Assembly (NCBI GenBank): GCA_964016885.1
Contig: OZ024758.1
Span: 20,646,001-20,710,000, forward strand
Source: Eledone cirrhosa
Taxonomy: Eukaryota
Reading direction: 5' to 3'
Length of the DNA stretch: 64,000 bases
Shown here: in pieces, positions 29,455 through 35,933 of the stretch
Layout: each line of letters starts with the position of its first letter
How positions within the stretch are numbered: position 1 is the first letter of the stretch
Position numbers and translations under genes: made by a program
The notes under the pieces: model-generated
The model's input: the letters and a program-made list of their open reading frames with translations, nothing else
Database searches by the model: none
Told to the model about the DNA's origin: nothing

Positions 29455-32400
29455 ATTGGAATAAATGCTCTGAAATAGCGATATATATATGAATATAGAC
29501 ATAGAATATTCGAAAATATTCTGTATGTTTATAATAAACATTTTGAAGACCTAATCGCTATAGAATAGAATACGTCACGTATTACAATTAGATTCTCGAT
29601 AAAAGCAAGGGAAGTAATCTACGCGTTTCATTCTTGTTAGAATTCATCAGGACTACATATCCAGTGCTTTTATCGAGAATGACACAGCTAGAGACTTATA
29701 GAATACTTAGCTGTGTACAGGAACTGGTTTGAAAGAGCGGTTGCCGGTCCGGCAGAAATTAGAAATTGGAATAAATGCTCTGAAATAGCGATATATATAT
29801 GAATATAGACATAGAATATTCGAAAATATTCTGTATGTTTATAATAAACATTTTGAAGACCTAATCGCTATAGAATAGAATACGTCACGTATTACAATTA
29901 GATTCTCGATAAAAGCAAGGGAAGTAATCTACGCGTTTCATTCTTGTTAGAATTCATCAGGACTACATATCCAGTGCTTTTATCGAGAATGACACAGCTA
30001 GAGACTTATAGAATACTTAGCTGTGTACAGGAACTGGTTTGAAAGAGCGGTTGCCGGTCCGGCAGAAATTAGAAATTGGAATAAATGCTCTGAAATAGCG
30101 ATATATATATGAATATAGACATAGAATATTCGAAAATATTCTGTATGTTTATAATAAACATTTTGAAGACCTAATCGCTATAGAATAGAATACGTCACGT
30201 ATTACAATTAGATTCTCGATAAAAGCAAGGGAAGTAATCTACGCGTTTCATTCTTGTTAGAATTCATCAGGACTACATATCCAGTGCTTTTATCGAGAAT
30301 GACACAGCTAGAGACTTATAGAATACTTAGCTGTGTACAGGAACTGGTTTGAAAGAGCGGTTGCCGGTCCGGCAGAAATTAGAAATTGGAATAAATGCTC
30401 TGAAATAGCGATATATATATGAATATAGACATAGAATATTCGAAAATATTCTGTATGTTTATAATAAACATTTTGAAGACCTAATCGCTATAGAATAGAA
30501 TACGTCACGTATTACAATTAGATTCTCGATAAAAGCAAGGGAAGTAATCTACGCGTTTCATTCTTGTTAGAATTCATCAGGACTACATATCCAGTGCTTT
30601 TATCGAGAATGACACAGCTAGAGACTTATAGAATACTTAGCTGTGTACAGGAACTGGTTTGAAAGAGCGGTTGCCGGTCCGGCAGAAATTAGAAATTGGA
30701 ATAAATGCTCTGAAATAGCGATATATATATGAATATAGACATAGAATATTCGAAAATATTCTGTATGTTTATAATAAACATTTTGAAGACCTAATCGCTA
30801 TAGAATAGAATACGTCACGTATTACAATTAGATTCTCGATAAAAGCAAGGGAAGTAATCTACGCGTTTCATTCTTGTTAGAATTCATCAGGACTACATAT
30901 CCAGTGCTTTTATCGAGAATGACACAGCTAGAGACTTATAGAATACTTAGCTGTGTACAGGAACTGGTTTGAAAGAGCGGTTGCCGGTCCGGCAGAAATT
31001 AGAAATTGGAATAAATGCTCTGAAATAGCGATATATATATGAATATAGACATAGAATATTCGAAAATATTCTGTATGTTTATAATAAACATTTTGAAGAC
31101 CTAATCGCTATAGAATAGAATACGTCACGTATTACAATTAGATTCTCGATAAAAGCAAGGGAAGTAATCTACGCGTTTCATTCTTGTTAGAATTCATCAG
31201 GACTACATATCCAGTGCTTTTATCGAGAATGACACAGCTAGAGACTTATAGAATACTTAGCTGTGTACAGGAACTGGTTTGAAAGAGCGGTTGCCGGTCC
31301 GGCAGAAATTAGAAATTGGAATAAATGCTCTGAAATAGCGATATATATATGAATATAGACATAGAATATTCGAAAATATTCTGTATGTTTATAATAAACA
31401 TTTTGAAGACCTAATCGCTATAGAATAGAATACGTCACGTATTACAATTAGATTCTCGATAAAAGCAAGGGAAGTAATCTACGCGTTTCATTCTTGTTAG
31501 AATTCATCAGGACTACATATCCAGTGCTTTTATCGAGAATGACACAGCTAGAGACTTATAGAATACTTAGCTGTGTACAGGAACTGGTTTGAAAGAGCGG
31601 TTGCCGGTCCGGCAGAAATTAGAAATTGGAATAAATGCTCTGAAATAGCGATATATATATGAATATAGACATAGAATATTCGAAAATATTCTGTATGTTT
31701 ATAATAAACATTTTGAAGACCTAATCGCTATAGAATAGAATACGTCACGTATTACAATTAGATTCTCGATAAAAGCAAGGGAAGTAATCTACGCGTTTCA
31801 TTCTTGTTAGAATTCATCAGGACTACATATCCAGTGCTTTTATCGAGAATGACACAGCTAGAGACTTATAGAATACTTAGCTGTGTACAGGAACTGGTTT
31901 GAAAGAGCGGTTGCCGGTCCGGCAGAAATTAGAAATTGGAATAAATGCTCTGAAATAGCGATATATATATGAATATAGACATAGAATATTCGAAAATATT
32001 CTGTATGTTTATAATAAACATTTTGAAGACCTAATCGCTATAGAATAGAATACGTCACGTATTACAATTAGATTCTCGATAAAAGCAAGGGAAGTAATCT
32101 ACGCGTTTCATTCTTGTTAGAATTCATCAGGACTACATATCCAGTGCTTTTATCGAGAATGACACAGCTAGAGACTTATAGAATACTTAGCTGTGTACAG
32201 GAACTGGTTTGAAAGAGCGGTTGCCGGTCCGGCAGAAATTAGAAATTGGAATAAATGCTCTGAAATAGCGATATATATATGAATATAGACATAGAATATT
32301 CGAAAATATTCTGTATGTTTATAATAAACATTTTGAAGACCTAATCGCTATAGAATAGAATACGTCACGTATTACAATTAGATTCTCGATAAAAGCAAGG

Positions 32401-33798: not shown

Positions 33799-35933
33799 CT
33801 GCCGGACCGGCAACCGCTCTTTCAAACCAGTTCCTGTACACAGCTAAGTATTCTATAAGTCTCTAGCTGTGTCATTCTCGATAAAAGCACTGGATATGTA
33901 GTCCTGATGAATTCTAACAAGAATGAAACGCGTAGATTACTTCCCTTGCTTTTATCGAGAATCTAATTGTAATACGTGACGTATTCTATTCTATAGCGAT
34001 TAGGTCTTCAAAATGTTTATTATAAACATACAGAATATTTTCGAATATTCTATGTCTATATTCATATATATATCGCTATTTCAGAGCATTTATTCCAATT
34101 TCTAATTTCTGCCGGACCGGCAACCGCTCTTTCAAACCAGTTCCTGTACACAGCTAAGTATTCTATAAGTCTCTAGCTGTGTCATTCTCGATAAAAGCAC
34201 TGGATATGTAGTCCTGATGAATTCTAACAAGAATGAAACGCGTAGATTACTTCCCTTGCTTTTATCGAGAATCTAATTGTAATACGTGACGTATTCTATT
34301 CTATAGCGATTAGGTCTTCAAAATGTTTATTATAAACATACAGAATATTTTCGAATATTCTATGTCTATATTCATATATATATCGCTATTTCAGAGCATT
34401 TATTCCAATTTCTAATTTCTGCCGGACCGGCAACCGCTCTTTCAAACCAGTTCCTGTACACAGCTAAGTATTCTATAAGTCTCTAGCTGTGTCATTCTCG
34501 ATAAAAGCACTGGATATGTAGTCCTGATGAATTCTAACAAGAATGAAACGCGTAGATTACTTCCCTTGCTTTTATCGAGAATCTAATTGTAATACGTGAC
34601 GTATTCTATTCTATAGCGATTAGGTCTTCAAAATGTTTATTATAAACATACAGAATATTTTCGAATATTCTATGTCTATATTCATATATATATCGCTATT
34701 TCAGAGCATTTATTCCAATTTCTAATTTCTGCCGGACCGGCAACCGCTCTTTCAAACCAGTTCCTGTACACAGCTAAGTATTCTATAAGTCTCTAGCTGT
34801 GTCATTCTCGATAAAAGCACTGGATATGTAGTCCTGATGAATTCTAACAAGAATGAAACGCGTAGATTACTTCCCTTGCTTTTATCGAGAATCTAATTGT
34901 AATACGTGACGTATTCTATTCTATAGCGATTAGGTCTTCAAAATGTTTATTATAAACATACAGAATATTTTCGAATATTCTATGTCTATATTCATATATA
35001 TATCGCTATTTCAGAGCATTTATTCCAATTTCTAATTTCTGCCGGACCGGCAACCGCTCTTTCAAACCAGTTCCTGTACACAGCTAAGTATTCTATAAGT
35101 CTCTAGCTGTGTCATTCTCGATAAAAGCACTGGATATGTAGTCCTGATGAATTCTAACAAGAATGAAACGCGTAGATTACTTCCCTTGCTTTTATCGAGA
35201 ATCTAATTGTAATACGTGACGTATTCTATTCTATAGCGATTAGGTCTTCAAAATGTTTATTATAAACATACAGAATATTTTCGAATATTCTATGTCTATA
35301 TTCATATATATATCGCTATTTCAGAGCATTTATTCCAATTTCTAATTTCTGCCGGACCGGCAACCGCTCTTTCAAACCAGTTCCTGTACACAGCTAAGTA
35401 TTCTATAAGTCTCTAGCTGTGTCATTCTCGATAAAAGCACTGGATATGTAGTCCTGATGAATTCTAACAAGAATGAAACGCGTAGATTACTTCCCTTGCT
35501 TTTATCGAGAATCTAATTGTAATACGTGACGTATTCTATTCTATAGCGATTAGGTCTTCAAAATGTTTATTATAAACATACAGAATATTTTCGAATATTC
35601 TATGTCTATATTCATATATATATCGCTATTTCAGAGCATTTATTCCAATTTCTAATTTCTGCCGGACCGGCAACCGCTCTTTCAAACCAGTTCCTGTACA
35701 CAGCTAAGTATTCTATAAGTCTCTAGCTGTGTCATTCTCGATAAAAGCACTGGATATGTAGTCCTGATGAATTCTAACAAGAATGAAACGCGTAGATTAC
35801 TTCCCTTGCTTTTATCGAGAATCTAATTGTAATACGTGACGTATTCTATTCTATAGCGATTAGGTCTTCAAAATGTTTATTATAAACATACAGAATATTT
35901 TCGAATATTCTATGTCTATATTCATATATATAT
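33799..35933 (+). mobile_element. Hammerhead-bearing 310-bp tandem array, inverted right arm, ~6.9 units
   Basis: ctgccggaccggcaacc starts at 33799, 34109, 34419, 34729, 35039, 35349 and 35659. It is the reverse complement of the left arm and ends in the unit's internal (AT)5 tract, which merges into genomic (TA)n. Confidence 0.93.
33874..33962 (+). ncRNA. Type I hammerhead ribozyme (representative of 21 copies)
   Basis: attctcgataaaagca-ctggatat-gtagtc CTGATGA attct-aaca-agaat GAAA cgcg TA gattac-ttccct-tgcttttatcgagaat. Stem I is 6 bp + internal loop + 16 bp perfect; stem II is 5 bp; stem III is the palindrome ACGCGT; GUA cleavage is predicted after 33934. Confidence 0.93.

Follow-up and report, generated by a model that had tools for sequence, protein, structure and literature searches.

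Architecture of the insertion

The 64,000-nt window analysed here, positions 20,646,001 to 20,710,000 of the forward strand of contig OZ024758.1 (C19) in the AT-rich, 3.0-Gb assembly GCA_964016885.1 of Eledone cirrhosa, carries a retrozyme, a tandem array of non-coding units that each contain a predicted hammerhead ribozyme. All window coordinates refer to this stretch. The whole insertion extends from 29455 to 35933, about 6.5 kb, and consists of two unequal arms of identical 310-bp units joined head to head. Unit positions are counted from u1, the first base 3' of the predicted ribozyme cut (window 33935). The left, tail-end arm (29455 to 33798, minus strand) comprises 14.01 units with 14 ribozyme cores, and its 3' end at u165 abuts a (TA)n-type target tract (28681 to 29454). 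The right, short-end arm (33799 to 35933, plus strand) comprises 6.89 units with seven cores and ends in an internal AT tract of the unit (u132-139), which abuts the second (TA)n-type tract (35934 to 36423). Outside both tracts the DNA is unmirrored and unrelated between the two sides. An initial annotation of this DNA had described a 2.1-kb palindrome with ribozyme-sense strands diverging from a short spacer into (TA)n. Orientation and palindrome were both confirmed: 31651 to 33785 and 33799 to 35933 are exact reverse complements of 2,135 bp each, with the first mismatch at 31650/35934. The palindrome is merely the overlap zone of the two unequal arms, the insertion itself beginning at 29455. 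A comparison at period 310 gave zero mismatches within the left and zero within the right arm; the copy number of such identical units may be imprecise.

The spacer at the head-to-head junction (33786 to 33798) has the 13 nt given in the initial annotation and contains a 4-bp stem with a 3-nt loop. The 5' ends of the arms lie at u162 and u175, joined either bluntly or by a 4-nt microhomology with one mismatch, and the junction 30-mer has a single occurrence in the assembly. The outer ends are not equivalent, u165 on the left and u139, or at most 7 nt before it, on the right. This leaves a tail of at least 26 nt on the left end (29455 to 29480, minus strand, u140-165) that is absent from the right end.

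The 310-nt unit and its predicted hammerhead

No open reading frame of 100 codons was present inside the array, and the fold of the unit was more stable than that of shuffled sequences (z -5.9). By its predicted core and stems I to III the unit is assigned to the type I hammerheads. The first of the seven plus-strand copies is predicted at 33874 to 33962 (fold z -6.45), with 14 more on the minus strand. It combines CUGAUGA (33904 to 33910), a 5-bp stem II, GAAA, a 1-bp C-G stem III capped by a palindromic loop, a GUA cut triplet with the predicted cut after 33934, and a long, interrupted (extended) stem I. The match to the Rfam family Hammerhead_HH9 scored 23 bits (E 0.004), below the gathering score of 52. 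Fixed variants at u2, u20, u259, u276 and u277 preserve the stem I pairing of the predicted fold, and u284, the variable core position N7, varies between loci. Hammerheads with a 1-bp stem III are known from the axolotl, where they cleave poorly as monomers and better as dimers (PMC7229834). Membership in the plant retrozymes, which are dimeric and have long terminal repeats (LTRs) and a type III hammerhead, was ruled out by the type I motif in multimers without LTRs. Rfam miRNA matches across the junction were a by-product of the palindrome and far under their gathering scores.

Two kinds of unit variants were observed in the genome. Six loci (L041, L047, L072, L074, L182 and L190) have 311-nt units with an extra C or T two bases past the predicted cut and ligation site, array-wide. 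A related 314-nt hammerhead unit (L277, 6666-7147, on contig C1 near 116.71 Mb) is 71 % identical and ends in (TA)n at the same AT tract. Its best-conserved parts flank both end sites and may be the cis signal for the enzyme.

A family of two-armed insertions with two fixed ends

Counting family members by sequence patterns yielded 17,796 ribozyme cores genome-wide, 980 ends of one exact form at u165 and at least 1,379 ends in the internal AT tract. Single-unit variation across arrays amounted to about 0.04 %. The family consists of dispersed, recently mobile copies without LTRs, over a thousand of them recent. A survey of other loci for the divergent architecture, which the initial annotation had recommended, found it to be general. 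Two arms joined head to head were present in eight of nine other loci picked by the ribozyme core (the single-armed locus L032 is counted in this ratio and left out of the junction and arm tally) and in 87 of 94 that were chosen for their u165 end. The remaining seven comprised one ending in a gap, one that was two-armed on extension, one with a very short second arm and four with one arm. Loci picked by the short end, all lacking an exact u165 partner, were nevertheless two-armed in 16 of 26 cases. The u165-end and short-end samples were selected with TA flanks. A divergent short end lay within 20 kb of 54 of the 69 u165 ends among those listed; one shows only another arrangement.

Both outer ends are fixed. 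The short end fell at u125-139 in 105 of 108 complete loci, and the tail end at u165-172 in 15/16 and 6/8 loci of two samples that were not selected by the tail end. The two sites are 26-45 nt apart. Insertions lie in (TA)n or AT-rich DNA, with TA on both sides in seven of the nine core-picked loci. In many loci u131 is T in the outermost unit of the short-end arm and C in every inner unit, which would be expected if the target TA pairs with the AT tract of the unit and slips. The window locus has T at u131 in every unit, a state fixed in only 4 of 129 loci.

The same build in Penelope-like elements

In insertions of Penelope-like elements (PLEs) a 5'-truncated copy in inverted orientation is often present, together with a tail of 30-40 bp on one side; the Hydra and Naiad PLEs target (TA)n (PMC8557442). 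The purified PLE protein of Anolis, a predicted dimer, cuts and extends both strands, and its two internal start sites delimit the tail (PMC11167929). The retrozyme insertions resemble a non-autonomous PLE derivative in both traits, the inverted 5'-truncated copy (87/94 loci two-armed) and a one-sided tail of this kind between ends at u125-139 and u165-172.

The likeness to a PLE-type fold-back that the initial annotation had noted extends to two autonomous PLE families of this genome. Eight kb to the right of the array, a Hydra-type PLE forms a two-armed insertion from 43657 to 50010 (minus arm 43657-49676, plus arm 49677-50010). Both ends lie in (TA)n, about 136 nt apart and downstream of the element's own hammerhead-like motif. 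A 768-codon open frame (47524 to 49830, minus strand) is read as its 5'-truncated reverse transcriptase with a GIY-YIG endonuclease; this frame had no Pfam and no PDB match. Full-length copies elsewhere have 830 codons from stop to stop; one such copy showed the motifs RWR (RWK in the Hydra clade), DKT, CxCX5C, CxxC and CxH and no DKG. On these motifs, the C-terminal GIY-YIG domain without CCHH, the (TA)n target and the hammerhead-like motif, the element is assigned to that clade. The family is young, its 137 scored copies showing 99-100 % identity, and both arms diverged to two fixed (TA)n ends about 136 nt apart in eight of ten loci, a count that includes five of five loci not selected for inversion. 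The element serves as a comparison case for the two-armed build and is a candidate partner at most. A second Hydra-type family is represented by a fragment at 59922 to 61700 with GIY-YIG and CxCX5C motifs and an inverted short arm ending in (TA)n. Its full-length copies have a 781-codon frame, and a distance of 109 nt separated its two ends in 5 of 12 loci, the majority of them selected as inverted pairs.

The first of these elements has some further properties. Its full unit measures 6.7 kb, including a 3.9-kb microsatellite-rich 3' region, as compared with under 3 kb for the Hydra elements reported in PMC8557442. Stem II of its hammerhead-like motif has about 110 nt. The (TA)n-type tracts around it (39209-43659, 4.4 kb; 50009-51469, 1.5 kb) are far longer than most in the window.

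Proposed mechanism

The insertions can be explained by a PLE protein acting in trans, probably as a dimer, that would nick both strands of a (TA)n tract. Each 3'-OH would start a cDNA at one of the two fixed sites, the short-end start being set by pairing of the target TA with the AT tract of the unit. Both enzymes would then traverse the ribozyme cut site and several units. The two cDNAs would halt at unrelated points, and microhomology-mediated repair would join them. The template would usually be a monomer circle and on occasion perhaps a linear multimer left uncut, and part of the long arrays may have been reshuffled later as DNA; these last two steps are proposed with less confidence. That PLE-type twin priming made the insertions of this family is very likely. 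For the full interpretation, a recent insertion of a non-coding 310-nt retrozyme into (TA)n by PLE enzymes, twin-primed on one RNA that was probably usually a circle, we estimate a probability of roughly three in four.

In the inversion of long interspersed nuclear element 1 (LINE-1) insertions by twin priming, the second target strand primes internally, which produces an inverted segment and a microhomology join. This happens in a minority of LINE-1 insertions, with a variable second site and little overlap of the arms. In contrast, inversion of the retrozyme is the rule, the second site is fixed and the arms overlap by kilobases.

A probable single RNA template, circular or linear

The initial annotation had suggested that both target ends were primed on the same RNA species, and the haplotypes bear this out: the two arms had the same haplotype in 72 of 74 loci, compared with 9.8 % of pairs taken from different loci, and 30 haplotypes were distinguished in total. 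Seventeen substitutions were private to one of 129 loci and yet fixed across all its units, up to 24 of them. Of 224 5' ends, five lay no more than 5 nt from the cut site (7.9 expected), hence without clustering at the cut. Private fixed substitutions together with the lack of clustering indicate that a bottleneck of one unit preceded the formation of multimers on a continuous template, in line with the circle model that was proposed for retrozymes in PMC7229834. Among the fixed substitutions, A>G changes outnumbered T>C (12 vs 5, one-sided p 0.03), in comparison to 14 vs 18 among single-unit variants, a weak hint of RNA editing.

The strongest competing explanation also invokes PLE twin priming, here always on uncut linear multimer transcripts of existing arrays, so that a circle is unnecessary. 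It draws on three loci. The scan for shared variants covered 109 loci with 96.5 kb of arm overlap and revealed in L066 and L177 a minority variant common to the outermost full unit of both arms. In L179, which lay outside the scan and was read separately in an extended interval (C1:136719499-136725900), the two outer ribozymes of both arms have one haplotype and the inner ones another. A monomer circle cannot yield such in-register variants; they are consistent with both enzymes having begun within one unit of a linear multimer. In addition, the Anolis PLE accepts uncut RNA in vitro and does not require ribozyme cleavage (PMC11167929), and the axolotl hammerhead with the same stem III type is a poor monomer cleaver (PMC7229834). 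However, the scan gave only 2 in-register shared variants in the 96.5 kb against 77 differing positions. The 30 haplotypes in 74 loci and the 17 private array-wide substitutions demand repeated one-unit bottlenecks and subsequent multimerisation, and 5'-truncated copying alone would be expected to shrink arrays in every generation. As the exclusive route, linear multimers are unlikely. Arm-to-arm conversion is an alternative source of the variants in L066, L177 and L179; overall they fit twin priming on one RNA, which they strengthen, and weaken the circle as sole template. The concatemers of circular RNA named as template in the initial annotation are accordingly likely for most loci, while these three fit a linear multimer. 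We lean towards the circle as the usual template.

Junctions

The arms are joined at points that vary freely. In the set of 112 junctions the offsets between the arm 5' ends were uniform (Kolmogorov-Smirnov p 0.77), with 15 within 20 nt (14.8 expected) and four within 5 nt (4.0 expected). The arm-length test comprised 108 loci, four cut by a stretch edge being left out: the longer arm was the short-end arm in 51 and the tail arm in 57, and the lengths of the two arms correlated (rho 0.33, p 0.0004). Overlaps of at least 2 nt occurred in 52 of 84 insertion-free junctions, against 18 % for random joins, with the reservation that known variants were bridged when overlaps were measured, so that microhomology may be overestimated. 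Inserted bases were present in 28 junctions. These observations are best accounted for by two cDNAs that were anchored at separate target ends and linked through microhomology.

Snap-back of the cDNA, which the initial annotation had offered as one cause of the inversion, was not borne out. In this model, published for the head-to-head PLE junctions of Adineta (PMC3846280), one cDNA or an antisense template folds and copies back, and the short spacer of the window with its 4-bp stem or the perfect hairpin at the junction of L075 could be taken as its traces. Self-priming predicts small offsets and one arm that is always shorter; the offsets were uniform, either arm could be longer and both ends are fixed independently. 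Furthermore, the haplotype switch in L179 is in register from the outer ends and not mirrored about the junction. The 13-nt spacer of the window is unremarkable, one draw from the uniform spread of offsets. As a rule snap-back is very improbable, and it may finish a few junctions.

Growth as satellite DNA would start from short two-armed insertions, which unequal crossover would later enlarge and arm-to-arm conversion would homogenise. L052 and L069 contain variant blocks of several units that suggest such events, and a scenario of local amplification was put forward by Li, Clavereau and Pollet 2026 (10.64898/2026.07.22.740005). Against it stand 127 single-unit variants versus a handful of multi-unit blocks in 355 kb, the correlation of the arm lengths and the low divergence, which leaves little time, so that this origin of the arrays in general is hardly credible. 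Fold-back chimeric reads or an assembly artefact would agree with units of 100 % identity, which could be mis-assembled, and with the lack of a read or contig across the window junction in the four runs searched (contigs only, and uninformative since contigs drop rare variants), and are practically discounted by the unmirrored flanks, the 112 distinct junctions, the difference between the two fixed ends and the recurrence of this build in protein-coding PLEs.

A number of observations weigh against twin priming by PLE enzymes on a circular RNA or limit its reach, in addition to the in-register variants in L066, L177 and L179. One arm only was found in four of 94 tail-picked and about ten of 26 short-end-picked loci. 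Besides the window locus, all sampled retrozyme loci lie on one contig, C1. Target-site duplications are unreadable within (TA)n tracts. The arms of L060 are discordant, and L069, with 45 units and a double variant in nine scattered ones, and L052 show turnover at the DNA level. The A>G excess is weak and non-significant among private variants (6 vs 3, p 0.17), with the polarity set by the majority unit. No partner was found among the two Hydra-type families compared, whose units had no similarity to the retrozyme beyond TA tracts and whose tails of about 136 and 109 nt contrast with 26-45 nt in the retrozyme. A search for hammerheads with the same stem III gave 28 matches vs 12 in the control, and no PLE frame accompanied the 15 non-family matches inspected; the genome carries tens of thousands of unscored PLE candidates. 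Finally, none of the listed sequencing runs with words of the unit is on record as RNA.

Relation to known retrozymes and PLEs

The family shares with the non-LTR retrozymes of metazoans the tandem non-coding units of 170-400 nt with one type I hammerhead each, a low GC content and a strong fold, as well as the proposal of PLEs as mobiliser and circles as template (PMC7229834; 10.64898/2026.07.22.740005). The 1-bp stem III with a palindromic loop corresponds to HHR_Amex1 of the axolotl (PMC7229834). In the portions of these reports available, metazoan retrozymes are described as head-to-tail tandems only; the two arms, the paired fixed ends and the (TA)n targeting distinguish the family studied here. 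In Xenopus, 24 of 57 retrozyme families had Repbase matches (10.64898/2026.07.22.740005), whereas homology to pseudo-LTRs of the two PLE families compared was absent from our unit.

Partial tandems, an inverted 5'-truncated copy, a tail at one end, (TA)n targets, a hammerhead upstream of the ends and microhomology at 5' junctions are in common with Hydra-clade and Naiad PLEs (PMC8557442, PMC3846280). Unlike these elements, the retrozyme has no open reading frame, both of its arms are long multimers of one small unit and inversion is the norm (about nine in ten tail-picked loci). The Poseidon PLE of Anolis, PAc, agrees in vitro in the cutting and extension of both strands, the two internal starts bounding a tail and the AT-rich targets; it differs in that its start sites lack target homology, while the short end of the retrozyme sits in an AT tract matching the target (PMC11167929). 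In the accessible text of that study the activity is not tied to inverted two-armed insertions or to circular templates.

Other features and sequencing runs

The array is adjoined on the right by a 5'-truncated reverse-transcriptase tail of a LINE (36423 to 37466, weak RVT_1 match), which lies between two (TA)n tracts. A solitary 5S rRNA copy is located at 13394 to 13513 on the minus strand. In other sequencing data, 20 runs under 17 coded organisms contained 55-87 % of the words of the unit. Two of the runs (X4 and X5) each had one 340-nt contig (310 + 30) with the minority allele at u287. Such contigs have the form of a circle or a collapsed tandem and may stem from RNA, carry-over or a second host.

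Implications

Retrozymes, their proposed PLE partner (10.64898/2026.07.22.740005) and PLE inversions have been described before. A literature search, whose reach excluded most subscription papers and supplements, listed no retrozyme insertion with two arms and paired fixed ends. The way in which retrozymes spread in animals and the reason for the inversion and the tail of PLE insertions are called open questions in the available text of PMC7229834, PMC8557442 and 10.64898/2026.07.22.740005. The family connects the two through countable genomic evidence and allows twin priming to be told apart from self-priming as published. For an in vitro test it supplies a 310-nt substrate together with exact predictions of the start sites. 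More than a thousand perfect inverted repeats of kilobase length have also been seeded by the family; they may give rise to double-stranded RNA and to instability.

A wider claim, to which we give an even chance, is that a PLE dimer puts two reverse transcriptases on one ribozyme RNA circle and that both circle repeatedly from the two ends of the (TA)n break. The inversion and one-sided tail of all endonuclease-bearing PLEs would then reflect obligate twin priming rather than self-priming. If this is true, the more than 1,000 fresh arrays would document in the genome that rolling-circle reverse transcription takes place in an animal.

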